Part shown: in pieces, positions 16,145 to 63,242 of the stretch
Numbering within the stretch: the stretch's first letter is position 1
Layout of the letters: the number at the start of each line of letters is the position of its first letter
DNA from: Saprospiraceae bacterium
Lineage (GTDB): Bacteria > Bacteroidota > Bacteroidia > Chitinophagales > Saprospiraceae
Length of the DNA stretch: 64,000 nucleotides
NCBI GenBank assembly: GCA_016715465.1
Contig: JADKAA010000027.1
Coordinates: 1,548-65,547, forward strand
Reading direction: 5' to 3'
Position numbers and translations under genes: made by a program
The notes under the pieces: generated by a model
Told to the model about the DNA's origin: nothing
The model's database searches: none
Seen by the model: the letters and a program-made list of their open reading frames with translations, nothing else

Positions 16145-16175
16145 CCCTTTGTTTAACATTTTAAAGAACTGTAGA

Positions 16176-18488: not shown

Positions 18489-18500
18489 CCTTACACCCAC

Positions 18501-18545
18501 TTTGCAAAGTTTGCAATGTTTGCAAACTTTGCAGCCTTTGCAATT
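18501..18545. repeat. five in-phase 9-bp tandem repeats, TTTGCAnnn (iteron- or operator-like)
   Basis: The units are tttgcaaag tttgcaatg tttgcaaac tttgcagcc tttgcaatt. The core TTTGCAAA is palindromic. Confidence 0.85.
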
Positions 18546-18711
18546 TCGTCGCTCATGCCCTCAAAACCGTCCTTTGTATGTCAGGCTGAATTCTTGCATT
18601 TCTCTTTTTTTATCAGGTTATTTCCTGCCTTTCTTTTTTCATCTTCCCATAAGTAATAATACCTTCTTATTATTGTTTATGTTTGCCAATATTTGACAAG
18701 TCAACAAATAA

Positions 18712-40249: not shown

Positions 40250-40250
40250 T

Positions 40251-41225: not shown

Positions 41226-41227
41226 TT

Positions 41228-42787: not shown

Positions 42788-43998
42788 AGCGCTTTGAAAT
42801 CGCAATTATAGATGACCAGGGCCTTGATACCGGGTTTGGCAGATTCTTGGCATTGTTGTATAAGAATCAATACTTGTCATCTAATGATTTTGCATTGGTG
42901 CAAAAAAAAGATTATACAGATGGATTGGGAAAAAATATGATACAAAACTCAATTGCTTTTCAGATATACACCCATAATTACGGTAATCAGGGTTTTAAAA
43001 AATGTTTTTGTGAAGCATTTAGTGACTTTGATAGTAGAAAAGATCAATTTGATATTTATATTTTTGACCTCAATTTTATTGAGCAGGACAATAACTCATT
43101 TTATCCGTTACATTCCAAAAATCAATGCGACACAAGTAAGAAATTTAAGAAAGGATTGACCTTAGATAAGGTGAATGACTCAGACAAATCAACCTTAATT
43201 GCGGGGCTTGAATTTTATCATTGTTTAAAGCCCTCATTTAAGCCTAAAATAATTTATTCGGCAGCACAAGAAACGGCAGTACTTCGTAGCTCAGTCAAAC
43301 TGTTTAATTCAAGGCTCTACGATACATTTATAGTAGATGTTACCGCCCCGGCAGAAGTAAGAAATGATAGCAATGACCCTTTCGAGAATATGGGAGATGT
43401 GTCAAGGACATTTGATGCTATAGATATCTACTTTCAATCCCGTCAAATAGCCATTATCAACAGCCAATTATTAGACAAAGTACAATTGTTAAGCAAAATT
43501 GTTAAAGAGTGGAATGGAAAAGTGGAAAATGCAGATGAACCTTTAATACCTGATAACGGAACCGACTCTAATCCTGCAAATTGTTGGAGTTTAAGAACGT
43601 TGTTTCCAAAGCAGGTAAACAGGATTGAGTTGGGGATTGATGTGGAGGAGAATACAACTAAAATATTGGAAACGATAGGCAACTTGAATTTCCCTTCTAT
43701 TTACAAATTCTTAGTTCATGACCATGGAAATTTAAACGGTATGGAATATGAAAATGTAAAAAATGAACCAATCGTTATAAATAGATTTCCTGCAATACTT
43801 GATTTGGAGTTTAATACTACCGAAAAAGTAACATATGAAAAATTTAGTGAGATTGTCCCTAATCAATCAGCCTATAGTCATAAGACTATAAGAAGGAAGA
43901 TTTATGATATTAATTTTGATGTTCAGAATCAAACAGTTTACAAAGAGTCAAACGGAACTCTTGAGGAAAAAAAACCTCTAGAATTGTTACTGGATTAA
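42784..43998 (+). CDS. receiver (REC)-domain protein with an unknown C-terminal region
   Basis: IAIIDDQG (acidic pair), IYIFDLNF (Asp codon 43066-43068) and KIIYSAAQ. ATGA overlap with the kinase gene. The stop sits just after the A-run 43967-43974. Confidence 0.55.
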   Translation: MKRFEIAIIDDQGLDTGFGRFLALLYKNQYLSSNDFALVQKKDYTDGLGKNMIQNSIAFQIYTHNYGNQGFKKCFCEAFSDFDSRKDQFDIYIFDLNFIEQDNNSFYPLHSKNQCDTSKKFKKGLTLDKVNDSDKSTLIAGLEFYHCLKPSFKPKIIYSAAQETAVLRSSVKLFNSRLYDTFIVDVTAPAEVRNDSNDPFENMGDVSRTFDAIDIYFQSRQIAIINSQLLDKVQLLSKIVKEWNGKVENADEPLIPDNGTDSNPANCWSLRTLFPKQVNRIELGIDVEENTTKILETIGNLNFPSIYKFLVHDHGNLNGMEYENVKNEPIVINRFPAILDLEFNTTEKVTYEKFSEIVPNQSAYSHKTIRRKIYDINFDVQNQTVYKESNGTLEEKKPLELLLD

Positions 43999-44033
43999 CC
44001 GAAGATGGTCGGATTAGTCAAGCAGTTCGGAAA

Positions 44034-44501
44034 ATGGCTGAGTATGGTTTCTATCTCGGAGATTTAAAGCTTATCTACTTAATAATTGATTCTAACTCAA
44101 AATATAATTTTAGTGATACCTATAAAGAGGCTAAGAAAACGAATGGCGAAGAGCTGCCAAAGCCCAAACTAACAATTTCCTATTTCTCTCAAGAGGTAAT
44201 AGTAAATATTAGTTACGATTCTGATAATGAATATTACACGCAATCTAATTTGCATATTAATCCTATTTATGAAGGAATTAAAAAGTTATTGCAAAACAGA
44301 CAAGATTGGAAGATAATCGACCAATTAGGCCCCACCCAAATATTTAAAATCCTGGCGTACCGCTATAACACAGAATTCGAAGTTAGAGTAGGGAAATTAT
44401 CTTTTTCTGCTGGTCGTTTCGGGATTACTGATATTCAAACTAATGATGATGGAGACAAAACTTATTTTCAATTCAAATTACCGACTCTAATAAAATCTTA
44501 A
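44034..44501 (+). CDS. hypothetical protein, possibly the C-terminal part of the preceding gene
   Basis: The reading frame stays open upstream of the ATG, back to the A-run 43967-43974. The end, DDGDKTYFQFKLP, weakly resembles the last strand of GHKL ATPases. Confidence 0.4.
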   Translation: MAEYGFYLGDLKLIYLIIDSNSKYNFSDTYKEAKKTNGEELPKPKLTISYFSQEVIVNISYDSDNEYYTQSNLHINPIYEGIKKLLQNRQDWKIIDQLGPTQIFKILAYRYNTEFEVRVGKLSFSAGRFGITDIQTNDDGDKTYFQFKLPTLIKS

Positions 44502-44513
44502 AAGGAGAATAAT

Positions 44514-45047
44514 ATGAATTACATAGTAATTGACTCAGTCGACACTCGGGCAAATAAATTAATTCAAAGATTAAATAATACTGCTGTAAAATGGCAATAT
44601 ATTGATTTTCTGTCTGAGAATGACAAACCTGATAATAATACGCTGTATTTGATTCATCACAGTGATGGGTATGTAGGAGAATTTGCCATGAAAATAAATT
44701 CATTGGAAAATGCTTTTGTGCTATTTTATTCAGGAGGCGGGCTTTCAGCAGATGAACTGAAAGCACAAGGAGATAAGATATTTTTTTATGCTGGCGGATT
44801 AAATTCTGGTGTAGATGAAAAAGCTATAAATATAATAAATGAAATTGTTTCAGTCATAAGCAAAGAAGACAACGTAACAAAAGTCATTGTACAAATAAAG
44901 AAAGTGCTTGGTTTTGATGAGCAACTCGAAAAATTACTTGAACCCTTCGCAACAGCAAATCCATTTAAAACGGAAAGCTCAAATGGAGAAAACTTAAAAC
45001 AAGCCAAAGAAGCATTGAACAAATACATTAATAGCAAGGCATTATGA
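44514..45047 (+). CDS. stand-alone pseudo-receiver-like protein
   Basis: 177 aa. LYLIHHSDGY ... VLFYSGGG parallels the N-terminal domains of the next two proteins (VYVIDVHCVF..VVFYSPIS and VYLINAHLNW..FIFYSPIQ). Confidence 0.45.
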   Translation: MNYIVIDSVDTRANKLIQRLNNTAVKWQYIDFLSENDKPDNNTLYLIHHSDGYVGEFAMKINSLENAFVLFYSGGGLSADELKAQGDKIFFYAGGLNSGVDEKAINIINEIVSVISKEDNVTKVIVQIKKVLGFDEQLEKLLEPFATANPFKTESSNGENLKQAKEALNKYINSKAL

Positions 45048-46957
45048 ATAAGGTATTTATATCAAATACAAAAGTTCAGAATACTGAAACAGATATTGTT
45101 TTCTGTCCAACCAATCGCCTTAGCGAGAAGTTGGAAGCTGTTGATACATCTGGCAAAACTGTATATGTTATAGATGTTCATTGTGTTTTTACAAATAATA
45201 AAAAGCAACTAAAATTACAAGACCAGGGCGGTGTAACAATCTACCGCCAATTACTGCAAAAATTCGATGGTAATCAGGATAAACTAAAAGTAGTTTTCTA
45301 CTCACCAATCTCTCAGGAGGATTTAGTAAAACTAAAGCCCGAAAACTATGTGCTAAGTTTGTTACCGTTGGTGGAATGTAAATATGAAGAAGGCCAGTTT
45401 GAAAGTGAGCTTGCCAGAATTATTTCTGACAATAAATTTCCGCTGTTTAATAACGCTTCAGAGAATTTGTTAAGTGGATGGGCGTTATTTAGAGCAGACA
45501 ATAACAGAAAGGAAAATGACTTTGTCGAAACACAATACAAACATAAAACCCCCACAGATAAGCCAAGGGTAATAACTTTTATAGACGATGAAATCAATGA
45601 GTGGAGAGAAACCTATTCCAAAATATTTGAGCAAGGGAAAAATATAAGATTGATAATGTACCAAAAAGAGAAACATCCATTTTGGGAATTTAGTGAGGAA
45701 AAAATTGACAATCTTAAAAATCATGTGATGCAGTCGGCTCTGATTGTTTCAGATTTCTATTTGCAGGAAAATCATGCTCCAAATACATGGTTGAGCAATA
45801 AGCAACTTGAAGATAAAAGCGGTTTTAAATTATTTAATGCAATTAAAGGTGGCGGCTACAAAGATGGTATTCATAAAGGTGTTCCATATATTATGTACAC
45901 ATCAAGCAATAAAATCCAGTATTATCAGTATTTGGATGCACATGGCATTGATAATTGGTTGGTAAAAGATGTTCGACCTAATGCTACTGCTTTTGAAAAG
46001 AAAGATGGCTTTTATACATTTAAAAAGGTTATTGAGGAGTTTACTCATCAGGAAAGCTCTCACTTGTATGCCATACTCAAGTTGTATTGGGAACGGATAC
46101 AAAAGCTGGAGGCTCGAATTAAGGAAATGGATTATGATAGGATTTCAAACTGGTGGTATTCTCTATCGGGGCAAAATGAAGAAGATAGGGAGGAAATTCA
46201 AGTGAAATCTAGCTGGGAAAAGTGTAAAAAAGCAAGTAGTGAAAATGTTGATGAAGTTATCGGATTGCTAAAAGATTCATGGATGGCTATTCGTGCAAAC
46301 ATGAACCGGGAAACTGTTTTTGCCGAAAGTGTAGGAAGCATGGATAGGCATTTTACCGCAGCATCAGTATGTTCAAATTTAGGTAAGCTATTTGAGTTTT
46401 TCAATTTCACTCAAGGCATGAAATTGAATACTTACTTTAAGTTCCTCTTTTGCATAAGAAACATTGGAAGCCATTATAAGCAATATAAAAGCATAGAATT
46501 GGAGGATGCACTAATTTATTTTGACTGTTGGCTAACTGTCTTAGAAAAGAAGGAAGTGAGAGTATTTGAAGCTTTCAAGCCCCTATTAAATGTAGAAGAG
46601 TTTATCTTTCAAGGGAAAACGCTCAATACCAGTGATACCTTTGTATATGCACTATTGTATGGGTACATTCAATTTATAAATGGGTTTCATCTAAAAGAAA
46701 GCAGCCTGGCAAATGTCCTGATTAAGAAAAGGGTATCAGAAATACTATTTAATGCAGATAAAAAAATACTTGCTGCTGAATTAGAAACGGATTTCTTTGG
46801 AGAATTTGGAAATAAAATATTTTTAAAAAAGCATAGAAACAACAGAACTAATTCGCCAAATGCCAATAGAATTGTGAGCAACTGGAAGTCTGGCGGAACT
46901 AACTATGGAATAATTATCGAACAAGATGGAAGAATGTACATTACAAATAATGCCTAA
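45044..46957 (+). CDS. dual receiver-like protein with a C-terminal HEPN-like (Rx4H) helical domain
   Basis: REC2 has ITFIDDEINEW, ALIVSDFYL (Asp 45752-45754) and YIMYTSS. The C-terminal FLFCIRNIGSHYKQY gives R 46457-46459 and H 46472-46474. Confidence 0.55.
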   Translation: MNKVFISNTKVQNTETDIVFCPTNRLSEKLEAVDTSGKTVYVIDVHCVFTNNKKQLKLQDQGGVTIYRQLLQKFDGNQDKLKVVFYSPISQEDLVKLKPENYVLSLLPLVECKYEEGQFESELARIISDNKFPLFNNASENLLSGWALFRADNNRKENDFVETQYKHKTPTDKPRVITFIDDEINEWRETYSKIFEQGKNIRLIMYQKEKHPFWEFSEEKIDNLKNHVMQSALIVSDFYLQENHAPNTWLSNKQLEDKSGFKLFNAIKGGGYKDGIHKGVPYIMYTSSNKIQYYQYLDAHGIDNWLVKDVRPNATAFEKKDGFYTFKKVIEEFTHQESSHLYAILKLYWERIQKLEARIKEMDYDRISNWWYSLSGQNEEDREEIQVKSSWEKCKKASSENVDEVIGLLKDSWMAIRANMNRETVFAESVGSMDRHFTAASVCSNLGKLFEFFNFTQGMKLNTYFKFLFCIRNIGSHYKQYKSIELEDALIYFDCWLTVLEKKEVRVFEAFKPLLNVEEFIFQGKTLNTSDTFVYALLYGYIQFINGFHLKESSLANVLIKKRVSEILFNADKKILAAELETDFFGEFGNKIFLKKHRNNRTNSPNANRIVSNWKSGGTNYGIIIEQDGRMYITNNA

Positions 46958-48473
46958 AATATATTACCATATCTGTAACCCTTCCACACCTGAGCAACCA
47001 GGTATTAAAAACGTATATTCTTTAAAGGATTTACAAAAGGTGAAAGAGGATGCCACTACTGTTTACCTGATTAATGCTCATTTGAATTGGGAGGGAAGAA
47101 GATTGAGTGGTAATTACGGGTTTGATATTTCCAATGAATTGAGAGCAAAGTTAAAATCCAAAGCCCCTTTTATTTTTTATAGCCCAATACAAGTAAAATA
47201 CTTTGAGCAAGAGAGTAAAAATGACATTAGGTATAAAATTCTTTTTGGTAGCGGGTCAGCATTTATAAATTTTCCGTTTACATACCAGGAGCTGAGGGAT
47301 ATTTCTGAAAAATTAAAGCCATTAAGTAATGCAGGCTTGCATGACGTAGTTACCATGTTATGTAATGTAAAAGGATTGATAATTGACAAGCTCAATCATA
47401 ATTTAAAATGGGGAGTTGATAGCGAAAAAATAATTGCTCAAATCAAGCCCTACCTTTCCATTGAACAGCAAAGAACAATTGATTTTGATGTCTTTTCAAA
47501 TGCTCTCAGCAAAGCATCAGGGAAACAAGATTTTGATGCTGTAGTACAAAACTGGGTAGAGGTATGTACTTCACGTCTCACAGAGGATGTACAGAACTAT
47601 TCATATACTACTAACTTCCCGTACAAAGTATTATTGGTTGATGATGTTCAGGAGTATTTGGACAAAGCAAAGCAGTATTTGTCAAGCGACTTTGATATTC
47701 TTACGACCAAGTCTTGTGAAGAGGCTATACAAATATTAGCTAAAGATGGTGATAATAAAATTCTGGCAGTAATTGCCGATTGGCGCTTATATGATACTAC
47801 AAATCCGGATTATTGGCAAGCTATGCAGGGTTATGAAGTGCTTGCTTTTGCAGCTAGGAATGGTATACGCAGTTTAATAGCCCTGACATCCCAGTCTGAA
47901 TATATTGTACATAGACTGCGGGAACTCCTTGGTATTTGGTTTTCTTTGTATAAGAAACAACACTTAGAGAAGCAGGAGCAATGGCAGTTATTTTCTAATA
48001 TGCTTGCCGATGCCTGCCTGCGTACAAATGAAGCTATACTTAACAGGCCAACTGCAACAAACTGGACATCTAATAGAAGAAAGGACATCGTTAGTGAATT
48101 TTCTCCAAAAGAGATTTATGCAATTTTTAGGAGTAATGGAAAACTGTCCGAAATAGAAGATAAAGCAGATATTATCTGGCAGTCCTATTTAGATAAACAT
48201 CAAATTCGCTACCGGCTAAACGAGTTAAGCACTACTTATATTACGTTTGATACAACGGAAGAAATGCTGGTTCAACGAAGAATTTTCCTTGGCTTGTATC
48301 ATAGCGAATTTTCAATAGACGACATTTGCTGTGAAATGTCAAAGGACCCTAAAAAAGGACCCGGTAAAAACGACATAACCCAATTGAAAAGTAAACTCTG
48401 CATTAAGAACGAAGATTTAACCGGCGGTAAGATTTTAATTGAAGAAACAGCCTGGCTCAAAAATGGGGTTTAA
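46950..48473 (+). CDS. dual receiver-like protein, paralogue of the previous gene, with an unknown C-terminal domain
   Basis: The canonical REC has KVLLVDDVQEYL, LAVIADWRLYD (Asp 47778-47780) and LIALTSQS. The start is taken at the ATG at 46950, which overlaps the upstream stop by 8 nt. The ORF is open from 46926. Confidence 0.55.
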   Translation: MPKIYYHICNPSTPEQPGIKNVYSLKDLQKVKEDATTVYLINAHLNWEGRRLSGNYGFDISNELRAKLKSKAPFIFYSPIQVKYFEQESKNDIRYKILFGSGSAFINFPFTYQELRDISEKLKPLSNAGLHDVVTMLCNVKGLIIDKLNHNLKWGVDSEKIIAQIKPYLSIEQQRTIDFDVFSNALSKASGKQDFDAVVQNWVEVCTSRLTEDVQNYSYTTNFPYKVLLVDDVQEYLDKAKQYLSSDFDILTTKSCEEAIQILAKDGDNKILAVIADWRLYDTTNPDYWQAMQGYEVLAFAARNGIRSLIALTSQSEYIVHRLRELLGIWFSLYKKQHLEKQEQWQLFSNMLADACLRTNEAILNRPTATNWTSNRRKDIVSEFSPKEIYAIFRSNGKLSEIEDKADIIWQSYLDKHQIRYRLNELSTTYITFDTTEEMLVQRRIFLGLYHSEFSIDDICCEMSKDPKKGPGKNDITQLKSKLCIKNEDLTGGKILIEETAWLKNGV

Positions 48474-48994
48474 CCGAATAGCTCTCAGATAAGCAAAGAA
48501 AAGTGATTTTCACTCAATAGAGTTTGCCGGTTTGTAAGGGTTCATTACTTTTACACCAGTTCTTAGAAATACTTCATGTCAATTTGATTTGTGATGAAGC
48601 TTTGACCAATGTCAAAGTAAATGCTTGTAAAATTTCATCATTTAATCAACTGATTATGACAAAGTATTTCTGGACAATTATCTTAAACCCAGGCAAAGCT
48701 GATTACGATATCAGCCACCACTGGCCTGGGAAAATCAATAAACAACACCACCTTCTGGGGTGTGTTGTTATCATCTATGTCTTATTGGTTGCCGTTTCAG
48801 GCAAAAGCATTGTTTACTACCACACAAGTTTATTAGCCATCGTTTTTGCGGCGGACATTTTTTTTCCTTTCAGGGCAGCTTTAGCCAATTTCTTTCCTGC
48901 TACTTTTTTATGGAGTTGTTTGTTTCAGGTAAAGGATTATTCCTTCTCAACACAAATAATATTCACACATTTTCACCTCTAAAAAGTCATTGAT

Positions 48995-49273
48995 ATGCGA
49001 ACCTTTTTAACCATGTTTCTTATACTCTGCATAGTAGCCCTGATTATCGCAGTGATTTACGATTACCTGACACCTAGCGGCGCTGCCGTTGGCGGCGTGG
49101 CACTTAGGCTTGTTTTGTTTGAACTGAGAAGAATCCTGGTAGTCATTGCGGTTGTGTTGGTAATTGCATTTTTCTTGAAATACGGCGGCGACATTCAGAA
49201 GGCAAAAGCCATAATTGAAGATGCAAGAGGGTTGGTTAATTCAGGGGTTAAATATTTAGAAGTATATAAATAA
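48995..49273 (+). CDS. small two-TM membrane protein
   Basis: 92-aa ORF with two hydrophobic spans, positioned 5 nt upstream of the DUF4407-like gene. Confidence 0.45.
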   Translation: MRTFLTMFLILCIVALIIAVIYDYLTPSGAAVGGVALRLVLFELRRILVVIAVVLVIAFFLKYGGDIQKAKAIIEDARGLVNSGVKYLEVYK

Positions 49274-49278
49274 ACATT

Positions 49279-50427
49279 ATGAAATCTATTAAAACATTTT
49301 TGTTCCGCCTGGCCGGTGTTGATTACGCTGTAATCAGACTTCTATCAGCGAAAACTAAATTTCGCTATGTGGCCATTGCATTCTCAACGCTTATCCCGTC
49401 AGCCTTCGCCTTCATTGGCGGGTTCGACATCGCCAAAAACTTCAATGCCGGCTTGGGCATTTCTGTACTTGTTGGCATCTTTTGGATGCTGGTAATCGCC
49501 GGGTTTGACTTTATTATCATCAATTATGGTAAGGCCTCCGGTTTTTTAAGAACCATACGAATAGCAGCCGGTGTAAGCAATGTTCTTATTACCACAATTT
49601 TCCTTTTCACTTTCCTTAACCATAGCAGCATTAATAACAAAATTAATGGTGCTAATGCAAAAGAGGTTACGGCCTGCGATTCGACTTACCTCGTCCAAAA
49701 GGAAACCCGGTATGCCGAAGTAACCAGCAAAAGGCAGCAAAAGGATTTGTACCACCAAAACAATTGCGCCCCCGAAGCAGCAAGGATAAAACCTGGCCCG
49801 CTATACGCCGAGAAACATTCTTACTGTATTGCCCAGGATTCAGTGATAAGAAATGAGGAAGCTAAGATTGATAGCGCCGAAATGCTGTACCGGGACGCAT
49901 ACCTTGTACAGAAAAATGAAATTTTAAACAGGACAAGCAACGATCCATTTTATAAGGCTGATGTGCTGTTTAGCCTGATATTGGGTAGTTTTTCAAAATT
50001 CTTCCTTGCACTCATTTTTCTGATAGCACTTATTACCCTGGAATTACTACCGCTTTATTTAAAATTCAATATTGATCCTAAAACTGACGGGGCACAAATA
50101 GCGGAGGAGAATCACGACCAGATGTGCAATAATGCAGCTGACCAAAAAATAAAAGACATGGTCGAACATTCAGATAAAATGGATAGTCTGAAAAAGAAAA
50201 AGGAGGAGAGGGAAGCCCTAATGAAATGGGCTAATGAAGAACTTTTGAATACCCATAAAAGGGCTCCGCTTTTTTACCGCCTAAAAGAGTATAAAAGAAT
50301 TTACAGGGAAAACGGCCTGTATGAAGCTGCTGACGAGATTAATAAAATCCAGAATGCAATTACCAATAATGATGAGGAGGTAGAAAAACTGCTGAATCAG
50401 GCTATTAATAAAAGGAATAAAAATTAG
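49279..50427 (+). CDS. DUF4407-like membrane protein with a coiled-coil C-terminus
   Basis: 382 aa. The N-terminal LAGVDYAVIRLLSAKTKFRYVAIAFSTLIPSAFAFIGG pattern and the TM layout are as in DUF4407. Confidence 0.5.
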   Translation: MKSIKTFLFRLAGVDYAVIRLLSAKTKFRYVAIAFSTLIPSAFAFIGGFDIAKNFNAGLGISVLVGIFWMLVIAGFDFIIINYGKASGFLRTIRIAAGVSNVLITTIFLFTFLNHSSINNKINGANAKEVTACDSTYLVQKETRYAEVTSKRQQKDLYHQNNCAPEAARIKPGPLYAEKHSYCIAQDSVIRNEEAKIDSAEMLYRDAYLVQKNEILNRTSNDPFYKADVLFSLILGSFSKFFLALIFLIALITLELLPLYLKFNIDPKTDGAQIAEENHDQMCNNAADQKIKDMVEHSDKMDSLKKKKEEREALMKWANEELLNTHKRAPLFYRLKEYKRIYRENGLYEAADEINKIQNAITNNDEEVEKLLNQAINKRNKN

Positions 50428-50430
50428 GTT

Positions 50431-50661
50431 ATGAAAAAACTGTTTACAAAACTATCCAGCTTTTTTAAAAGAAAAGGGTATCAGCCTGATCAGGCGGATA
50501 TGCCCGTTTTTGACGAGTCCTCAACCAGCGAAGAAGCGCAGCCATCAGAAGCAAACGCCCCTGTTCAGGAATTTAACCTTGTCGAAGAACTGAAAAAAGC
50601 CAAAGCTGAAATAGCGGAGGTGAACAAGGCATTCAAAGAAGAACCATACCATCAGGCATAA
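50431..50661 (+). CDS. small acidic hypothetical protein
   Basis: 76-aa ORF tightly packed between its neighbours. Confidence 0.35.
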   Translation: MKKLFTKLSSFFKRKGYQPDQADMPVFDESSTSEEAQPSEANAPVQEFNLVEELKKAKAEIAEVNKAFKEEPYHQA

Positions 50662-52959
50662 TGAAAAGAAAATTATACATACTTACTGCGCTGGCCTTAG
50701 CCACCATTCTTTTTGGCTCATACAGCTTGTACAACATGGTGCTGCAATGCCGCACCCCGTATTATATTGAATGTGCAGGCAAGAAATTAGACAGCACTAC
50801 AGTTATTGCCATAAGCAATAGTAAGTCGGCCGGGGCCGATACTTTAAATTTCAATTTTGAGCAATCAAAAGTGATTATGCCAACAACACTGGCACATCTG
50901 CATTTTAATAATACAAAAGGACAATTTGAATTGAAGAACAATGCCCAGCATATTCAATGCCGCCAAAACAGTGCCGGAGAACTATTTTTTACCTTTTTGC
51001 CATACGCTGACTGATAACTGGCGGCAGAAAGGAATATATTTTGGCAGTGATGCCCCCATTGATGAAAGTATTCTTTCAACCCGTGGCCTGAAGTGGAATA
51101 CGGCCGCCGGGGACAGAAATACCAGGGTAAGCCTTCAACTCTTTAAAAATGCAGGAAACACTTTCATTCGCTTTAATGTCGATGGTATAAATTGCAAGTA
51201 CCTAATTAAAAAGAAAGATAAAAATGTCTTTGATATTTTTATTAATCAGCCGGTTATTTCCGAAAATGCCTTTGTCTTCAAGTTTGATAACACCAGCTTA
51301 GACACGGGGAAATACTCCTTTGAAATTACCGCATCCACATTCAAAGCAAATAGCACCCTGAAAGACGAAGCAGGGAATATCATATCCCAAACCAGCGGTT
51401 CGGATTTTTATGTAATGGCCGGAAATTACTTATTCCACATTACGCCAAAATATTCATTCAAATTCTTCATCTTTTATCTTGGGTTCTTTATCATCTTGCT
51501 AGCATTCCAGTTTTATTTCATTCTTACTGCGGCAAAGGCTGTCAACTCAATAATATTCTCCCTGTCCTCTGTCAGGATATTGATTAACTGTATCATTTTT
51601 TTGGCTACCCCATTATTTTTAACTGCATACTACCTGGGGGCAAACAGGATATGGTACCTCGTACTAATCCTTTTTCTGAATGCTTCATATTTCACTCCTA
51701 AAACAATTTTACATAATCTCAACTTAAAGGCACAAGCAAAATGGGTCCTCTATGTATTATGTGCTATCATCATTGCCGCAACAGTTCTTATAAAACCATT
51801 TACGGTGAATGAGAACCTGTTTGGGCGAATTCCTGTTCTTCATGTACAAAAGTTCCTGCTGTTAATGCTTGTTTTGGTAACACAAAGAAGATTGTTCCAT
51901 AAAATCAAATACGGCAATTGGTATCGGATAATAATAGTATTGGCATACTCATTTTTACTTAGCATTTTGACATCCGATATTGGCTCTGTTTTATATGCCG
52001 GACTTGCCTTGTTGATCGTTGAGTTAATCCGAAAGACTCTCAGCATAAAAAAAGCAGTAATAGGCGCAGGGCTATTTGTAGCAACAGTAGTCATTGCTTA
52101 TAATATTTCACCCGGTAGCGTTTGTAAATATAAAGGCTATAGGCTGCTTGCACCTTACACAAACCCGGCAAGCGATAAGCTAATTGAAGCAGAAGAAAGG
52201 GACAGGGAAACATACGCCGCACTCACTCTCAACTTAAAGAGTTTGTTTTATGAAAATACCCCCCGGTTTAATGAAGTATCTATTCCTGCCAACATGAGAA
52301 CGACCATACACACAGACTATGCAATGATGGGGGGCTACACGTTAGGCGGCTTTAACTTTCTGCTGTTATTTGTGCTGGTTCTGTTTTACCTGGTTAAGGA
52401 ATTATTTTTACTCCTGTTTTTTACTATCCGAAAGATCAGGGTTAATAAAACAGTTACTTATTCATTACCTAATTCAAGCGAAGCGGAACTTTTAAGGATT
52501 TTCCTGGCCTTCTCGATAGTACAATTTTGTTACCCTTTATTCAGCAACCTCTTACTCCTGCCTGTTACTGGCCAGTCTTTGCCAGGGCTGAGCATAAGTA
52601 ACATTGAAATAATTTTCCTGATACTGCTTTTGGTCCCTGTCGGCAGTATATTTTCCAATGCCAAATACTATTCAAACGCCACGCCATCAAATTATTTATA
52701 TGGCGATGCTGTAAAAAGCCTGAATTTTGGAATGTTTCTCCTCGCTTTACTATTTATCATAGGGATAACCATTAAAGCTGTTGCTTTATACCGGACAGAT
52801 AATATAATACAATGGACTAAGCAGGTATCTGATAAAGGTATTACACCGGAAACAAACATTCCCATAGCAGCAAATAAACAGGGCTTAATTAGCTATGCCA
52901 AAACAATAATTGGGGATGAAAAAATTTATAACGTATCAGCAGAAAAAAACCAATTTTAA
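50661..52959 (+). CDS. divergent SEDS (FtsW/RodA-like) polytopic membrane protein with an N-terminal anchor and extracytoplasmic domain; indel near 50985-51000
   Basis: ORFs 50661-51014 and 50941-52959. SEDS-like motifs are IPVLHVQKFLLL (cf. iQPsEfaK), LTSDIGSVL (cf. pDlGt), HTDYAMMGGYTLGGF (cf. HTDFIFAvigEElG) and LPVTGQSLPGLS (cf. P.tG..LPf.S). Confidence 0.6.
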
Positions 52960-53252
52960 AGGAACTGTCAGGCCTGTATTATTCAAATAAACCATATTCG
53001 CAAACAGTTTTTGAATCAAAAACATTTGAACAAAGTATAACCCGGTTACTGCGGCAAACAACCGTTGATTCTGCCTTTACTGTAAATAAGAAAGTCATAT
53101 CCGGGACCTACGAACCTTTCGGCAAAGTATATGCTGTTTCCCAAAAAGTTAATGACAAACCAAGTATCTCTGTTACCAATTCTTATTATGCTTCAATACC
53201 TGCAAATGCTGAAACTATACAGGGGGATCTGACAGCCGAAATTACCAGGGCA

Positions 53253-54140
53253 TTGGAACAGCATTTGACAAAAATTGGAGTTGCCTCAAATATCGGCTCT
53301 GTATGGATAACCGACTATAACACAGGTAATATAATTGCCAACAGTAGCTGCCCGGTAAATGCAGAAATCAATACCGCAGTAGTCCATTATCTCACGGGCA
53401 GTGTAAAGAAAATGCTATTGGCCTATACAGCTTTGAAAATAAACCCGGCTATAAATGACACCAGATATTATAGTACTAAATTTAACCGGGACATTTCTTT
53501 TACTGAATTTATCAAGTGGAGCGATAATGACTATGCGGCAAACCTGCTCAGTTATTTATTGCAAACAAATGGGGAAGAATTAGGTAAAATTCTACAAGCC
53601 GATTTTGACCTGCCGCTTTATAGTGTTACAGACGATAGTTACTTTGACTTGCTGCCAACTGAAAGAGATTTTGCAAAAAAATTAGACAGGAACAACGTCA
53701 TCTACCGGTTGGCTGTCGGGCAAGAGAAACCCTATAAGTTTTCTCAGGTAATGCAATGGTATAACCGTTTTGCATCCGGTAAAAAAGTGAATTTAAAATA
53801 CAGCTTCGAAGACAGAAAGGCAGATAATATTTCAATGAATGCCGATGATTTAAAGTATCTGCAAAACTGCTTTAACAGTGTTCTATATGGCACAGCTGCC
53901 AAAGTAAGGCAACCGCTTATTAATAATGGCATAGATATTCATAATTTATTCTGCAAAACCGGGACCGCTGAAAGCCAGAATGGAAAAGGAAACTCTTCAA
54001 GCAGCTTTATCATTTGCAGCCAAAAATATTGTATCGGGATTCAGCTTAAAGGCCGGATTCCGGAGAGTAAAGAAAACTACTCTGCGAAGGATCTATTTAT
54101 TCAGTTGATTCCAATATTTAAAAAATATGCCATCCTTTAA
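53253..54140 (+). CDS. penicillin-binding-protein transpeptidase-like domain protein; frame open from 52932 and probably fused to the SEDS ORF
   Basis: SxxK = SVKK (53400-53411), SxN = SDN (WSDNDYAANL) and KTG = KTGTA (Lys 53955-53957). The A-run 52943-52949 separates it from the SEDS frame. Confidence 0.65.
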   Translation: MEQHLTKIGVASNIGSVWITDYNTGNIIANSSCPVNAEINTAVVHYLTGSVKKMLLAYTALKINPAINDTRYYSTKFNRDISFTEFIKWSDNDYAANLLSYLLQTNGEELGKILQADFDLPLYSVTDDSYFDLLPTERDFAKKLDRNNVIYRLAVGQEKPYKFSQVMQWYNRFASGKKVNLKYSFEDRKADNISMNADDLKYLQNCFNSVLYGTAAKVRQPLINNGIDIHNLFCKTGTAESQNGKGNSSSSFIICSQKYCIGIQLKGRIPESKENYSAKDLFIQLIPIFKKYAIL

Positions 54141-54938
54141 ACAATAAGCATAAAAAAAATTCCACGTTACCCATCGCCAACGAACTATTAAGCTGCACCA
54201 ATCCATTTGAAAAAATAAAATACACATGCAAGATAGCTCCGGGAAAACGGGGCATCCAAAAGCTTACGGCATAAAGCAGTATTGCATATCCTCATCGATA
54301 TATCCTGCACAAGCCATATCAAGTAGCTCAACTAAACCAATCCACGCATTTATTCCGTTTCCTTTTGGAGTGCAAAGACACCCGTTTCCCTTCGCTGACA
54401 ATAGCATATTATTTTATTTTTTCATTTTAAATGTATTGCTATGTCAGTTCTTGTTCAGCGTTGGCTTGTTGGCAGCATCTGGGTTAGCTGCTGGTTCGTT
54501 TCTCCCAGTGTGTTTGTTTTTTCATCACAGTTAGGCCATTCATTTACTTCGTCATGTGAGCCTCCTTGGTAGGGGGCTTTCTTTTTGATTTTATACATTG
54601 GATAAGAAACTGAAATGATTCCGTACTGCCTACAGGCCACCTTCTTCATTTCGTTCGTTTGCTCCGTTCCCTCCGCTGCACTCACTCATTCAGTCGGTAG
54701 CCTTCCGGCATTCAACATCCTGCTCCGATTGCCCAAACGGCAACATCCCGGAGCCACACACAAATCCAGACCGGGTAGCTGGCAGCCATCGCTTCTTTTC
54801 AGATTGATTGATTCCCAATTCCACGATATAATCAATGGGTCATTTATAGTAAAATTTTCGTAACATCCTGTTCCTCAATTAACAAATCATGTTTATATTG
54901 TAAGAGATTTTATCGGTAAAATGAGTCATTGAGGCTGA

Positions 54939-55073
54939 ATGTATTGGAAAAGCGTAAGCCAGCAGATTCTGCCGGTTACCATCAAATACCCCGAAATGGT
55001 GGCCGAGATATTCCCTTACTTCACCCACGATAAACTACCCGACCACGGCAAGGAGAGCCTGTGGTTTTTGTAA
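54939..55073 (+). pseudogene. remnant of a second pAgo gene (last 44 codons only)
   Basis: MYWKSVSQQILPVTIKYPEMVAEIFPYFTHDKLPDHGKESLWFL* is collinear with the last 44 codons of the intact pAgo (36607-36741). They share the 20-mer atggtggccgagatattccc. Confidence 0.85.
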
Positions 55074-55088
55074 AAACAACAATACACT

Positions 55089-58000
55089 ATGGCAGAATTT
55101 ACAAGGAAACCACAGACAGGAAATATTTTTGAAGGAACTTCTGATGAAGAAATTGAAGTGTTTCTAAAAATCAAGGAGGATTTTGGTGCCCGTTATGATC
55201 GTAATGAAAATAATGAGTTCAAATTTTTAAAGGCTATAGAAATTATTCAATCAAGACCTCATATTTGTTATTTTCAGAAGCAAAAGGAATTTACCAATAC
55301 TAATAAGGTCACTGGCAAAATATTTACAGAATCCAATCATAAAATTATTATACCTCTTGAAAGAGACAAATCATTTGAGATAATTGTTTCTTTAAGGGAG
55401 GACAGGATAAATACGTTTACTCAATTGTACTCTTATAGAATAGTAAAATTTAAAGAAGCAACATTTACTAATGAGCCTAAAAATCCTATAAGAAGAAATT
55501 GCACCTTTCGAATAATTCCATTAGAAGATAAGAATGGTTCAGGTTCAGAAAGATTCAAAGAACTTTATTCTCTGGTGGAGGCAAGCGTAATCCCTGTAGT
55601 TGACATCAACAAAGAAAAAGACAAGCAAATTTGGCACAACTACGTTTTGGCCATGAAAAAGTTGGTGAAGCAAAAGGAACAGGTATGGAAAATTCAAAAA
55701 ATTAGCCATCCTTATTCTGAAATACAAGGAAAAGATGAAGAACGAGCCAATTATATTGATGTTTACATCAATGAGAAAGAACTGATTGATCAGCTAATAG
55801 ATGACATTGAAGGCCTTTTTAATCCTGATGAATTAGAAGATTATGGAGTTAGTGATGAAAAGGCATTTATTGAATTTAAAAATTATCGGGAGTTAAGCCA
55901 GGGGGAATTAAACCAACTAAAGGAATTAGGTGAAGAATTATTCTATGAACTTTCTGCTACATCCCCTATCCATTATATTTCCGGTGAGATACAATTCAAA
56001 TACACTGATAATGCGTCAAAAGATGAAATATACACTGCAATAAAAGCAAAGCTGAGTGCTGACTACCAACTCGATACTGAAATCAACAAGGACGGACACA
56101 TTAATCTGAGTGATAATGATATACCACATTTGCAAAAAAATACTTGCAGATAATTACAACAACTTAATATCCCTACACAAGGATAATCTTGTTCAGCTAA
56201 AAGTAGAGTTTAGTTCCGGTAAAGATTTAGTACTGCTGAAAGATAAAGTCAAAGGTATTCTTGATGCGGATGGATTAACAAGAAGCACAGTTTCTATTTC
56301 ACAGGATAAGAAGCATATTATTGTCGAAGCAGAAGTGTTTATCCATCCTAAAAAGTTCAGTAATGAAAATTTGGAATTTGTTTACACTATTTCACGTTTT
56401 TCACCAAGTAAATACATTCAATTTAAAGAGATTGAAGGGTTGGAGATTGTAGGTAACTCATATCAGATAAAGAGTGAGAATAGAGAGGAGTATGATGTAG
56501 CCTTCAATGCTCTAAGGCAGAATTTTCCGGGTCTTTATTTTCATAGAAAACCTTCTCAATATTACTTTAAAAAAGGTAACAGGGTTGATGTTCAAGTTCT
56601 ACGGAACTTCAAAACAACAACAGACTTGCAGGGAAAATCCGAATTTGTTTTTGCCAATTCAATATTAAATGTGCTTGCTGAGAATGCTGAGGATTATAAC
56701 GGACAAATAAAAAGGATAAAAGAGGCGTTTCCTGAAGCAACTCTGCAAGTCAAACCTTTTAAGCCCACCTACCAAATACAATTTAGAACTGATGTAGGAT
56801 CAAAAAGACAGGATTTTATTAATAAGTTTAAAAACGAAATAAGAAATGCAGTAAGTGGAAAGGCGGAATTTGATGTTATAAAAAATCAAACAAAGGTGCT
56901 TTTTTCTTACAACTTTAATTCTGATGAGGAAAGAGATAGATTCAAACAGGCTGTTTCTGAAGCATGTACTCCTAATCTGGATATAGTTTCCTTTTCATTC
57001 GAGAGTGAGCTGGGAAGAACAATTTATGAGCTGCATAAAAATGAAACTCTTGAAATTGAAAAAGAACGGGAAGTTGCTGGTAATATCAGGTCTGCTACAT
57101 TTATTTATTTAACTCCAGAAGAAAAAAAACAACTTGGTTATGAAATTGAGTTAAAGGGCGATGAGGCCTATTTCAGAGGAGGTATTCAAATAGGGAAATT
57201 GATAAGAAAAGAAAGAGATCGACTAAAGTTTCGCATTACAGATGAATTTGATGAAAGAATTAATGCAAGAGAAGAAGACCGGATAGATTTAACTGAAATA
57301 AAGCAAGGCTATATCAAACCGATTTTCCCGGGGAATTAACAAACATTGGCAGGATGATAAGGGCAATGAAAAAGTTACTGAACCTGGTGGCCGTGTAGGG
57401 TATCCTGTGAACAGAAACCTTTCCAATTTCTTGTTTGATCCGAATGAGGCAAGGCAATCAGCAACTGATATTGAAGTAGAAAAATTAAAAGTAATTGCTG
57501 ATTTAAATGAGCCATTATTAAAGGAGCAACAAAAACAGCTTGAAGCAGTTGCAAAGACACTAATTGCAAAAGACTTGGCATTAATACAAGGTCCTCCCGG
57601 CACTGGTAAAACAACTGTAATTGCTGAGATTATCTGGCAAACACTGCTCCGTGAACCACAGGCTAAATTGCTGATCACTTCTCAAACCAACCTTGCGGTT
57701 GATAATGCACTGGAAAGGATTAAAGGAAAGAAATTAGTTCGCCCAATACGCATTGGTAACATTGATAAGTTCGAGGACGAAGGAAAAGTTTATTCAAGTG
57801 ACAGGATTAAGAAATGGCTACAAGCAAAAACAAATTCTAATGAAGAAGGACTGTATGCAGAAAATGCAGTTTGCCAATGGATAGAAAATGTTCAGGCAAA
57901 ATGCAGCACAGAAGAGAAGTATGCCAAAGCGGTTGAAAAATGGAAAACCGGCTTATATGAGAAAGATATACTGATTAAGACAACTTTCGCAAATGCTTAT

Positions 58001-59035
58001 TACAAGTATGTAAATGTATTTGCCGCTACATGTAGTGAGTGTGGTAGCAAAAATTTTAGTGAAACCTATCAAACTACTTTTCAGAGAAACTCCGAAAGCC
58101 CAGTAGAACCTGAATTTGATTTGGTAATTATGGATGAGGCAAGTAAGGCCACACCTCCTGAATTGGTTTTGCCACTTACTTTAGGCAAAAAGGTAGTTAT
58201 TATAGGTGACCATAAGCAGTTGCCACCAATGATTGATGAAAGGGATTTTGAAGAAGCGTTGGAAGCAGTAGGTGCAAAGAAACTAATTGAAGATTGGACG
58301 AGTTCGGACTATAAAATCTCTCAGTTCGAAAATTATTTAAAAAATGCTCCAAAGAATTTTGTTGCCAGTCTTGATACGCAGTTTCGGATGCATGAACAGA
58401 TAATGAACTGTATTTCTCAATTCTATACGGACCAAGAGGAACTGGAGCACGGTTTAATATGTGGAATCAAAAATGAAATGAATATTGATGATTTCAATGT
58501 AAAAGCAAGTAGGTGGCATGGTATAGATATTAAGCCATTTGTCTCTAAAAAAGATCATGCAATCTGGTTAAATGTAGATGGCCCAGAAATACAGGAAGGA
58601 GAACATCTATATTCCAATGATAGGGAAGTTGATGCTATCTACAACGTTTTGAAATTGCTTTCCTCAGACGAATCGTTTAAGGAATATCAACAATTTATGA
58701 AAACTCAACGAGAAGAGAATCAAGAGATTGGTGTAATTACGTTTTATGGGCCACAAAAGAACAAAATTGGCCGGAAGTTATATCCACATTTACAGCCAAA
58801 AGATTGGAAGGAATTTGAAAAGCATAAATATGAGAATGAATTTGGGATACCATTCCGGATTAATACAGTTGATAAGTTTCAGGGTATGGAGAAGAACATA
58901 ATAATTATTTCAACAGTTAGGAGCCATAAACAAATAAAGATTGATTCAAAAGGCAAGAGTATCAATAGGACAAATCATAAATTAGGTTTTGCAAAAGAAC
59001 ATCCTCGTATAAATGTTGGTTTTTCAAGAGCCTGA
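55089..59035 (+). pseudogene. giant DNA2/UPF1-like SF1 helicase with a ~750-aa N-terminal region, broken by at least 3 indels
   Basis: Made of ORFs 55089-56153, 56110-57339 and 57407-59035. Breaks lie at the A-run 56141-56147 and twice within 57325-57390. Motifs include LIQGPPGTGKTT, IMDEASKA, GDHKQLPP, VDKFQGMEKN and NVGFSRA. Confidence 0.7.
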
Positions 59036-60001
59036 CGAAGATCCTAATGAATCATTCTCAGATGAGATTGTTGAGGTAATTGAAAATAATTTCCCGGCAT
59101 TCATAGCTGAAAAAAGTAAAGATTATCAAAAGCAATCTCCGAAATCCAATAAAACAAAGAAAGAAGAAGTCCCTGTATCTGATCAGGTCCCGTTAGAATT
59201 AAGAATCATTGAAGCAGGTAGCAAGGAGAAAAAACTAATTGAAAGAATTATTGGTTTCACCGAGTTTGATTGGAATTTCACTGTTGCTAAATATAGAGGG
59301 GAATGCTCCCAGCCTGTTGAGTTCAACTTATTTGATGAAGTGCTTTGCGACTTATTGTTGACAGAGCAAATGTCTGCAAGTAAAATTGGTGATGTACTCG
59401 GTCTGGATATTCAAAAAGACCCAGCCGAGAAAGAGATTTTACTAAAAGCAATACAGGATTTGAAGGATGATAAAATGCTTGAAGGAGATGAAAGCATTAT
59501 GTGGCTTTCTGCTACCGGAATAGATTACGCTAAAAATGGCGTTAAATTCTCAACCTTTACAAGAAACTTTGAATTGTATTTTGATTTAGTTGGTAGTACA
59601 GCAGCAATGTGAAAAGTGTTTTTAGCAAGCTAAAGAGTGAGAAGACACAATCTCAGGTTTCAAATCTCCCTGACAGTTTGCAGGAAATTAGACGGTTGGC
59701 TGAGCACCAGGCACAAGAAATTCACTACCCCGAAAAGAATTACCTATTGCAATCCGCAGAGTTTATTTCTGCTGATAGTTACAAAGCTAAAGTTTGGGTT
59801 ATATTATTGGAAAATTTTAGAGAGAATACATTGAGGGCATTAGTTTATGACGAAAAGCAAAACATTGTCATTGATTCATTGTCAGAAGCATTGGACAAGC
59901 AAGAGCATATAAAAATGGAATTGCTTGAAAAATTGGTGAAGGTTGATGATGCTATTGAATTTACTGAAGAAGAAAAAGAAAACCGACCAGATTCAAATTG
60001 A
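59013..60001 (+). pseudogene. uncharacterised segments between the helicase core and the PLD-like region (two ORFs)
   Basis: ORFs 59013-59612 and 59609-60001, same strand. The helicase motif VI region ends abruptly, which suggests a deletion. Confidence 0.35.
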
Positions 60002-60151
60002 ATCCTGAATTGATTCAAAAGCAGATTGAGATTGATGAAGCAATCAAGACACAGGATGTAGGTAAGATCAAAGAAATTCAGAAAGAGGTTGATGCCATAA
60101 AGCGGCATTTCAATTCACTTGAATTTGAAGTGGAACTGAAACGGTTGTTCG

Positions 60152-60696
60152 ATGATACTGCAAAATGACCTTTGGATAATTAGCCCTTGGATTAAGAATG
60201 CAACTTTCAAGCGTATTCCTTTCTTTGAAAAGTACCTGAAAAAGGAGGCAGAATATTTATTGCCTATTCAGAACCCGGAAGAACCTGGGCAGGTAATGGC
60301 TTATGATGAACCACTAAACAAGCTCTTGGATTTAGAAAAAGGTATCAGAATTTTACCCGCATCAACTACCGGCTTTCCATTACAAGAATGTATGGTTGCG
60401 AAAGAATATGAAGTAATTTGTACTATACCGGCAGTTACAATATTCTATCATTCTTTGTTAGTCAGGGCTTGCAAAAGGTTAGGCAGGAGAAAATGACACG
60501 TATGGATTGGAATGAAGAAGTTCAGGAGGAATTTGCTGATGTAATAAGGCAGTTCGGATTAAAGTATGCCAATAAAGCTATTGAGGATTTCAATACACTT
60601 TGCCAAAATCCACCGGAAATAATTGACAGGTCATATCTGCAAAAACTGAAGACAGTAGATTACAGCAAATTGAAACCTTTCATCAATCAGGCATAG
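60152..60696 (+). pseudogene. PLD-like (HxK) nuclease domain remnant, multiply frameshifted
   Basis: DLWIISPWI in one frame, FHYKNVW (HxK) and GSYNILSFFVSQG in others. Confidence 0.45.
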
Positions 60697-61002
60697 AGCA
60701 GTTTGATACTGCTTATGATGCACTCGAAGATAACAAGTTGGAGAATCTGAATTACTATAGGAAAAGTACTTTGAGGGTAAGATTGCTGATTATCGAAAAC
60801 AGGCTGAAGAACTTTCAAAGCAATCCATTTCACCGGATAGGAAGAAAAGTTTAGTGAGCGAATTTGAGAATTTAAGGGATGAGTTTATGGATTTCCTTGA
60901 AATACAAATGACTGGTGCAAAAGAAGTAGTAGAAATGATTGCAGGGTTAAGAACGTTCAATTTTTCAGCACAACAAAGAAATAATCCCAAAAGAAGATAA
61001 CT

Positions 61003-61455
61003 ATGTCATGTTTTGAAACATCCACTTTTGCCAAAAATCCTGATGTAATGAATCAGGAAGTTCTTGTTCAGGCTTGTACTAAGCTGGGTTGAAATTTTGC
61101 AAAGACTGCCAATGAACTTACCATATTTCAGTTAAATGCAAATGAGAATTTGCGTGGTGAATATGCAATGAAGATTGTCGGTAATAAAGTTACTTACAAC
61201 ACATATTACTTAAAGAATGCAAGGAGCAAGGTTAATGAGTTGCAGTCGGTTTTCTATGAATTGAATGTAAAAGTATGCAGAGGAATCCATTATCAGGGAG
61301 TTCAAGAAACAAGGCTGGTCTTTTTTAAGAGTAACGACAAGTTCAAAGCAAATGTTGAAGAGAAGGTCAGCTTCTATGTGGTGGGAAGCAAATTACAGGA
61401 GGAATCGGAAAAGGTTGCTCAAATCAAATTTACGATTCTAAAGGACGATCTCTAA
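61003..61455 (+). pseudogene. DUF1257-like protein (running into a DUF2997-like segment) with an in-frame TGA at 61090-61092 and later shifts
   Basis: MSCFETSTFAKNPDVMNQEVLVQACTKLG*NFAK... The stop sits where a Trp (TGG) would fit. IKFTILKD(G) continues in another frame. Confidence 0.45.
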
Positions 61456-61628
61456 AAACGGACAGTGATTATATTCCGAGAGATATTATGAATTAGCAGA
61501 TAAAGCTATGTTTGAATTGGAAAGTATCACGGGTTCAAAGAGAGATAATAGCAAGGAAATACCTTTGAAATACAAACACAAAACATTTTGTGAGAAAAAA
61601 AAAACAATATCATTAAAACAAGAAATAA

Positions 61629-63242
<1,614 letters not shown>

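Follow-up and report, generated by a model that had tools for sequence, protein, structure and literature searches.

The 3' end of a second Argonaute gene at a cassette joint in a Saprospiraceae integrative element, and the Argonaute gene tail as a probable recombination seam

Introduction

Modular evolution of mobile elements, as in phage-type mosaicism, leaves gene remnants at the joints between modules. Some integrative elements insert at the 3' end of a gene or tRNA and bring a substitute end along. Long-B prokaryotic Argonautes (pAgos) are defined by the absence of the catalytic DEDX tetrad, i.e. by an inactive PIWI domain. In Rhs and contact-dependent inhibition (CDI) loci so-called orphan tips are described: fragments without the 5' part of the gene come after an intact copy, each retaining a conserved piece of variable length and heading a different module (Jackson et al. 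2009, PMC2935791). In evolution the conserved and variable parts of these genes are decoupled, for which homologous recombination within the conserved piece was proposed as the driver (PMC2935791). Genes for RND pumps, HsdS, XRE and Schlafen proteins were observed near long-B pAgos, with no conserved operon (Ryazansky et al. 2018, PMC6299218), and a minority long-B subclade has the og_54 VirE-N protein encoded 2-8 genes upstream, the meaning of which was left unexplained (Song et al. 2023, PMC10620215). Here we examine a stretch of 64,000 nucleotides (nt) from a Saprospiraceae bacterium (contig JADKAA010000027.1, positions 1,548 to 65,547; referred to as the window), in which an intact pAgo gene, pAgo-1, is followed some 18 kb downstream by an isolated pAgo 3' end, which we call the stub. 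No description of pAgo 3' stubs was found in the literature. We estimate at roughly 60% the probability that the stub is the scar of a second long-B-like pAgo cassette in a Bacteroidota integrative element, and that the conserved pAgo tail is a homology seam at the level of the whole family.

Results

Intact pAgo-1 (34690-36741, + strand, 683 aa) matches Pfam Piwi and, over its full length, the PADLOC pAgo model PDLC02385 (E = 4e-227). When it was compared with the whole window by tblastn, the only matches were the gene itself and the stub (E = 2.5e-14), which aligns to residues 640-683 of the protein. The stub lies on the + strand at 54934-55073, with homology from 54934 and a 44-codon open reading frame (ORF) plus its stop at 54939-55073. 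An ungapped comparison with the 3'-terminal block of pAgo-1 (36607-36741, +) gave 96 of 135 nt (71%) and 33 of 44 aa identical with no indels and a longest exact run of 20 nt; in register, the flanks on both sides match at chance level, 4-13 of 30. An earlier note on this DNA had described the last 44 codons of another pAgo, collinear and without indels, lying 18.2 kb past the stop of the intact gene, preceded by an in-frame TGA and separated by 15 nt from the next gene. All of this holds: the distance from the pAgo-1 stop is 18,198 nt, an in-frame TGA stands directly 5' of the stub ATG (TGA GGC TGA ATG), the next gene has its ATG at 55089, and the similarity spans the full 135 nt and is not confined to the 20-mer. 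Divergence had been put at about one nucleotide in five, which is too low, as we measured ~29%, roughly one in 3.5. The identical 20-mer pointed out in the same place exists as the longest exact run, but nothing sets it apart: it codes for MVAEIFP, the best-conserved motif, where identity is expected from protein constraint, and as a crossover core it was rejected. A hidden DNA or RNA element in the pAgo tail was also rejected: synonymous-codon identity in the last 50 codons of intact genes (0.57, 0.47) is ordinary in comparison with the gene-wide 0.44-0.58, which argues against such an element and makes the shared 20-mer unremarkable. Rfam gave no match at gathering or E <= 1 thresholds, and no tRNAs were found.

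The parent of the stub was sought in a DNA-level scan of one genome per species, which returned 559 related stretches, nearly all from Bacteroidota (loci are numbered here with L). The best 80 of the 559 are mostly full-length pAgos of ~685-693 aa. In 57 intact pAgos the stub aligns to the final 44 residues; like pAgo-1, these proteins match Pfam Piwi and the one PADLOC model PDLC02385 over the full length, and the identity of these last 44 residues to the stub is up to 98% (98% for L009-L017). The 3' end of the gene from Sediminibacterium sp. C3 (L016) shares 130 of 135 nt with the stub (96%, five differences), followed by L008 (95%), L017 (93%) and L005 (87%), vs 71% for pAgo-1. Homology to this true parent clade begins 5 nt before the stub ATG. 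The pAgo-1 protein is only 40-51% identical to the parent clade in tblastn comparisons, and no part of its body shifts in affinity toward it. Judged by sequence, the stub does not come from pAgo-1 but is what remains of a second pAgo of another clade, the 5' ~1.9 kb of which, as had been proposed, is gone. The closest PDB relatives by sequence are AfPiwi and RsAgo; their proximity, together with the agreement with the og_54 subclade, suggests that the parent clade, which is widespread in Bacteroidota, is long-B-like.

The stub is followed by a native spacer of 15 nt (55074-55088, +) and by an operon at 55089-63239, all on the + strand. The same spacing and the same start sequence, ATGGCAGAATTTACAAGGA, are found behind full-length pAgo in L017 and L001. 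Gene A (55089-56772) belongs to a 557-aa family of unknown function (homologues of 506-594 aa) and has a frameshift near 56122-56138, where tblastn with the L116 protein passes from frame 3 to frame 1. It is followed by a gene for an MkoA-like superfamily 1 (SF1) helicase (56806-59038; Pfam AAA_11/AAA_12; 778 aa when intact), disrupted here over frames 1, 3 and 2, and by an MkoB-like gene of the PIN_4 family (59034-60700; 713-717 aa when intact), which lies in at least four pieces (tblastn frames 3, 2, 1, 3). Remains of a 230-aa gene (61003-61446) were recovered in changing frames by tblastn with the intact proteins of L116, L005 and L017, and remains of an AAA/IetA-like ATPase gene (61646-63239; PADLOC IetA) are disrupted in the same manner. 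L116 has the operon in intact form: the 557-aa gene, an MkoA-like helicase of 778 aa in a gene of its own, a protein of 713 aa that matches MkoB weakly (E = 9e-8), the 230-aa gene and the AAA/IetA-like ATPase. PADLOC recognizes MkoA in the helicases of L116 (E = 2e-109), L005 (5e-106) and L010 (9e-120), and the L005 homologue of the third gene carries PIN_4. The earlier note had placed a giant SF1 helicase/phospholipase D (PLD) gene at 55089. This has to be corrected, as relatives have a 557-aa gene and a separate helicase there, and no PLD domain was found with Pfam in the operon gene products examined, including the L005 homologue of the third gene.

All operon genes in the window change frame repeatedly in relation to the intact proteins of L116, L005 and L010, and a comparison with L001 contains 50 indels not divisible by three in 4.2 kb, many of them outside homopolymers. 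Most large genes at 13-53 kb are unbroken (e.g. ORFs of 1316, 869, 808 and 683 aa), therefore the operon cassette appears to be genuinely decaying. In L017, L001 and L115 a full-length but frameshifted pAgo of the clade stands directly before the collinear operon, which is the arrangement, a full-length second pAgo followed by a homologue of the gene at 55089, that had been suggested for relatives. Divergence of the stub tracks that of the operon (93% vs 85-90% for L017, 74% for both in L001), and stub, spacer and operon are therefore one inherited block. This shows that they were inherited jointly from an arrangement like that of L017, L001 and L115. The cassette once headed by pAgo-2 would have consisted of pAgo-2, 557-aa gene, MkoA-like helicase, MkoB/PIN-like gene, 230-aa gene and AAA ATPase. 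Intact pAgo is paired with an intact MkoA-like helicase in L015, L010 and L022. The operon is not an obligate partner of pAgo, since it is also found without one, following a BREX system in L114 and an HTH gene in L116.

An operon with an MkoA-like (Upf1/MOV10-type) helicase was found directly behind a pAgo of the clade, with a gap of 15-37 nt, in ~9 of ~52 independent loci (L010, L015, L019, L022, L025/L028, L041, L017, L001 and L115). Mokosh proteins have been likened to factors of the piRNA pathway (PMC11291487). By this analogy a PIWI-domain protein may be functionally linked with the MkoA-like helicase and the PIN/MkoB-like nuclease beside it.

On the left side of the stub the ~800 bp described earlier as free of credible coding sequence indeed hold no credible ORF, but they are not junk. 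Positions 54198-54800 are the conserved non-coding start of the right arm of the element family, truncated here; they are 92% identical to L054 19739-20130, which lies downstream of the last cargo gene of that locus. In 20 metagenome loci the segment comes after the cargo, and genes of clusters c12(-), c94(-) and c63 follow 1.5-2.5 kb later. Alignment with L113 delimits a junction spacer from the truncated right arm to the stub (54781-54933). Positions 54781-54905 are common to the window and L113 only; the right arm ends at ~54800 and a bridge of ~100 nt leads to the stub. The last part, 54906-54933, may be a decayed continuation of the stub (permutation tests: p = 0.04 vs pAgo, p = 0.17 vs L113). 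L113 has the same right-arm/spacer/stub junction with a longer, heavily decayed stub and a different gene downstream. The flank of the window is 87.7% identical to that of L113 and the stub only 59% (p = 9e-13), which indicates that stub and flank have different histories. Altogether it is shown that the stub lies at the joint between a truncated right arm and the pAgo-2 cassette, that both the stub and its operon are non-functional, and that the right arm closes a first unit, in which an integrase, defence genes and pAgo-1 come before the 18 kb of cargo.

The right-arm segment gave no match in Rfam or in a scan of viral contigs, and a scan for sigma-70 promoters and terminators stayed at background level. 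Region comparisons of L095, L097, L100 and L111 revealed a second copy of the block 54253-54368 1-3.5 kb further downstream in several loci. The + strand of the segment has a more stable fold than its shuffles (single-sequence z = -3.6) with a weak consensus fold, a terminator-like hairpin is situated at 54558-54579, and in L025 a Flavo-1 small RNA (Rfam RF01705, 63 bits) was found at 17666-17739 (-), inside the conserved right-arm region. The segment could be a cis site (oriT or att) or a small RNA.

Stubs of this kind recur. A peptide search gave 28 small "proteins" of 42-74 aa, with many database entries of exactly 44 aa; a free-standing family of small genes was considered as their source and rejected, as the DNA-level scan shows abundant full-length parents; the small sizes stem from the way in which the peptide search gathers its candidates. 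From the contexts of the peptide matches and from the genome scan we collected at least 15 independent stubs situated ahead of very different genes: MkoA operons, liv-type ABC transporters (a cluster with a counterpart behind intact pAgo in L055), a set of 2-oxoglutarate oxygenase, DUF1848 and UvrD genes, a TPR-LytTR gene and a pyridine-nucleotide oxidoreductase. Compared with the nearest intact gene, stubs have an even identity across their final 135 nt (0.86, 0.87, 0.86), which then drops to 0.66 and 0.47 at 136-225 nt, vs 0.89-0.81 overall and 0.88 and 0.81 at 136-225 nt in pairs of intact genes. The flat bins leave a 5' to 3' decay gradient within stubs, considered as a sign of repeated refreshing, unsupported as a general rule. 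Breakpoints cluster ~120-225 nt from the stop in searches that needed at least ~110-135 nt of stub; the full range is from ~87 nt (L061) to ~228 nt, plus 609 and 714 nt. Whole arrays of pAgo, cargo and stub also recur, in L003 (with a restriction-modification cassette), in the L081 family (11 genes) and in L061 (one gene). The L003 stub is 71% identical at the nt level to the intact pAgo upstream of it, the body of which is unrelated at that level, and the L081 stub is 91% identical to the 3' end of its own locus.

At the level of the family the pAgo tail behaves as a place of exchange. Among 113 locus pairs in which the final 300 nt of pAgo are at least 85% identical, the DNA past the gene is unrelated in 98, starting at the stop codon, and L016 has essentially the pAgo ORF alone in common with most of its relatives. 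The pAgo bodies of L045 and L048 are ~50% identical in nt, but from about -180/-150 nt through at least +1500 nt of cargo the two loci are 95-100% identical, which by sequence comparison is an in-frame crossover, placed at the same distance from the stop as most stub boundaries. In several pairs synonymous identity differs significantly between the last 100 codons and the rest of pAgo, and the L081 family combines 100% identity of 3' block and cargo with ~96% for the body. The alternative in the earlier note, that the conserved 3' end served as a recombination anchor, gains family-level support from the 98 pairs and from L045/L048.

One and the same set of pAgo, 11-gene cargo and stub is present in five genomes or metagenome-assembled genomes of different assigned genera (L081, L082, L084, L085 and L088; Kriegella, Aquimarina, Phaeodactylibacter, Mesoflavibacter and a Flavobacteriales bin). 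The 100% identity among them covers the pAgo tail and no less than 1.5 kb behind it, which indicates that tail and cargo spread very recently. In a comparison of L016 8094-10136 with L009-L024, homology also starts sharply at the other end, ~7 nt past the pAgo start codon, and the pAgo ORF behaves as a discrete module bounded at both ends.

The first unit of the window begins with the left arm of the integrative element (13045-19020, +; genes assigned with Pfam): a tyrosine integrase (13045-14265, +), a gene of unknown function, an HTH_17 excisionase-like gene (15848-16144, +), a BT4734_N(VirE_N)/DUF3987 primase-like gene (16062-18488, +) and an XRE regulator (18712-19020, +). This left-arm module (clusters c70, c42, c39, c2 and c7) stands upstream of pAgo in many related loci. 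It is followed by defence genes (SNF2 with an Eco57I-type enzyme, AAA_21, DruE-like helicase), pAgo-1 and the cargo. The same backbone flanks pAgo in dozens of loci, with a shared right arm (DUF6943, c12, SNase and others) past a highly variable cargo slot. The cargo of the window (36729-54140) is co-oriented on the + strand and by Pfam includes an ABC ATPase, a permease, a methyltransferase, an NMT1-like binding protein, a class-D beta-lactamase-like ORF and ~12 genes of unknown function; the ORFs scanned with Pfam at 36729-54863 yielded no integrase or transposase domain. Three cargo genes are weakly shared with L024, and as nothing else is common the cargo was rejected as a conserved partner module of pAgo.

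Some further features of this unit deserve mention. Two paralogous tyrosine integrases stand back to back, 11412-12632 (-) and 13045-14265 (+), with Arm-DNA-bind_5, SAM_5 and Phage_integrase domains, which suggests either that the integrase ends of two elements meet here or that an attachment region was duplicated. The DruE-like helicase just upstream of pAgo-1 (DEAD, Helicase_C, MZB/DUF1998, DUF559) is split into two ORFs in different frames (29493-32489 and 32501-34648), the split falling inside Helicase_C, as in a frameshift pseudogene or a local sequence error. ORFs of 234, 101 and 127 aa at 38839-40249 cluster together by BLASTP, the first matching methyltransferase domains, and are either tandem paralogues or pieces of a duplicated gene. 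The last cargo gene before the right arm (53253-54140, 295 aa) has a weak match to the Transpeptidase family, which includes class D beta-lactamases.

Discussion

We suggest that two related cassettes or elements came into tandem and that all DNA between a point inside the first right arm and codon ~640 of pAgo-2 was later lost or exchanged. The highly conserved last ~150-200 nt of pAgo would act, at the level of the family, as a homology seam, which moves with the downstream cargo and recombines into other pAgos, and stubs would be displaced or left-over seams still usable as landing sites. The pristine 3' part of the window stub and its operon probably arrived together by such a crossover, after the junction of right arm and stub already existed. 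The earlier note had supposed two pAgo-plus-partner cassettes in tandem. A second, different pAgo heading its operon is supported; the 18 kb behind pAgo-1 are accessory cargo with no demonstrable partner.

Several points weigh against this reading. In the window and in L003 the intact pAgo is of another clade than the stub (71% nt identity), which displacement by a single crossover cannot explain, so that an illegitimate joint or a deletion is needed as well. The idea that the window stub combines an older 5' part with a fresh 3' part rests on weak similarity, with the p values of 0.04 and 0.17 given above. Four or five independent pairs have cargo in common, and L045/L048 is the only clean chimera found among them. 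Clustering of breakpoints could partly be the visible tail of junctions at gene boundaries, given the minimum stub length of the searches, and a shorter stub does exist in L061. A second right arm is predicted behind the operon, where the window ends at 64 kb.

A serious rival, although clearly the less probable one, is plain erosion, in which dead pAgos are trimmed by deletion bias from the variable upstream side until selected cargo is reached, and short 3' stubs would build up as the last stage. Homology plays no role in it, and the sharp boundaries at stop codons would result from illegitimate recombination followed by selection for working modules, as in phage mosaicism. Full-length pAgos with frameshifts are common (L001, L008, L017, L035, L042, L052, L068, L077, L115), longer fragments survive in L021 (203 aa) and L062 (238 aa), constraint is relaxed in stubs, and L061 adds a shorter one; stubs below ~110 nt are beyond the reach of the searches. 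Set beside L008 (DUF87, full pAgo), L005 (DUF87, stub, helicase) looks as if it had lost an internal piece, and the junction contains ~70-100 nt of filler without a match. A deletion mediated by repeats or microhomology was considered for this pair and rejected, as no clean mechanism was recovered from the unmatched joint. Erosion leaves unexplained, however, why two unrelated bodies run in frame into one and the same 3' block and cargo in L045/L048, the discordances between 3' end and body, and the differing histories of stub and flank in relation to L113. Moreover, the operon in the window is dead, so no current selection would halt the trimming.

The seam could also be taken further, to a pAgo tail that is a dedicated "socket" for acquiring, stacking and swapping cargo or defence cassettes, with stubs as still-active sockets and not dead scars. 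We regard this as distinctly doubtful. Homologous recombination stimulated by pAgo has been reported elsewhere, and pAgo itself might promote exchange at such sockets.

Much less probable, and for the window largely refuted, is that an 18.2-kb mobile insert entered the 3' end of one resident pAgo by site-specific or Campbell-type integration, brought the surrogate end now at 36607-36741 and displaced the original to 54939-55073. In the window, L003, the L081 family and L061 co-oriented cargo does lie between direct repeats of the pAgo tail, the L081 stub closely resembles the 3' end of its own locus, and Rhs genes offer a precedent (PMC2935791). But the pAgo-1 body, at 40-51% aa identity, shows no switch of affinity relative to the clade of the stub, with the same situation in L003, and no integrase was found at 36.7-54.9 kb. 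Breakpoints at 87-228 nt are not those of a site-specific process. The two copies share just the 20-nt exact match, explained by protein constraint, and the DNA left of the stub is the right arm of the family and not the end of a discrete insert.

We give as little credit to a functional 44-codon ORF, either a small protein derived from the PIWI C-terminus or a translated leader coupling translation to the operon 15 nt downstream. Its ATG start is conserved, it is intact in the window and in L003, L032, L043, L044, L072, L074 and L092, four stubs end within 10 nt upstream of the ATG, and many database entries have exactly its length. That length is, however, a trivial result of the conserved Met once the upstream sequence is gone. 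The ratio of nonsynonymous to synonymous differences (pN/pS) is 0.14 in stubs vs 0.05 in intact genes, and older stubs are damaged: L005 has Y to D, P to K and W to R changes at invariant residues, L081 and L113 lost starts or stops, L002 has a premature stop and L061 a frameshift. This indicates that the 44-aa peptide is not under selection. In addition, the tail of intact genes has no extra synonymous constraint, and the operon to be served is pseudogenised in the window, where the stub is without function of its own. Chance similarity or a chimeric assembly at a conserved repeat can practically be set aside: metagenome assemblers can join contigs at conserved sequences and several related contigs end near pAgo (L001, L017), but the E value of 2.5e-14 is far past chance, a misjoin at a repeat would not yield non-pAgo sequence left of the stub, the independent contig L113 has the same junction, and many other independent stubs exist.

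Given the layout of these elements, the VirE-N, RND, HsdS and XRE "associations" of long-B pAgos are, in the loci surveyed, the backbone and interchangeable cargo of one integrative-element family, with pAgo as a hinge between defence genes and cargo. It follows that guilt by association calls for caution here, as genes directly behind a pAgo of this clade are mostly passengers. The family also offers a testable case of homology-guided cassette exchange outside toxin systems.

Compared with known systems, the operon behind the stub resembles Mokosh type I in its MkoA-type SF1 (Upf1-like) helicase, frameshifted in the window copy, but the 557-aa, 230-aa and AAA/IetA-like genes are not part of canonical Mokosh and the MkoB-like gene is only a weak match. 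The loci agree with the og_54 long-B subclade in the VirE_N/DUF3987 gene a few genes upstream, in RND efflux pump, HsdS, XRE and Schlafen neighbors and in the lack of a conserved operon. The published accounts (PMC10620215, PMC6299218) describe these associations without an explanation or 3' stubs, whereas here the neighbors are element backbone and cargo. Elements that target 3' ends are similar in that a direct repeat of the pAgo 3' end brackets DNA, and differ in that no integrase was found in the bracketed DNA, breakpoints vary and the intact gene is not the parent of the stub. As in phage-type mosaicism, homology breaks sharply at gene borders, flanking modules are unrelated and occasional partial-gene scars lie at the joints. 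However, the joints in pAgo loci recur at the tail of one gene, with in-frame chimeras in that gene, which suggests homology-guided and not purely illegitimate exchange.

The closest known analogue, as far as the analogy reaches, would be the displacement of C-terminal ends in Rhs genes. Here the variable part consists of whole downstream genes, unlike the C-terminal domain and immunity gene of Rhs, and pAgo arrays are short, with one stub. Rhs tips match the clade of their locus, high identity being required for the crossover; among the pAgo loci such a match is seen only in L081 (91%), the stubs of the window and L003 being of another clade than the intact gene. Nevertheless, in the window, L003, the L081 family and L061 an intact pAgo is followed by a 5'-truncated stub that heads another module, and the L045/L048 chimera, the synonymous discordances and the L081 family show a conserved piece and its module decoupled from the gene body, in the same way as in Rhs and CDI loci.

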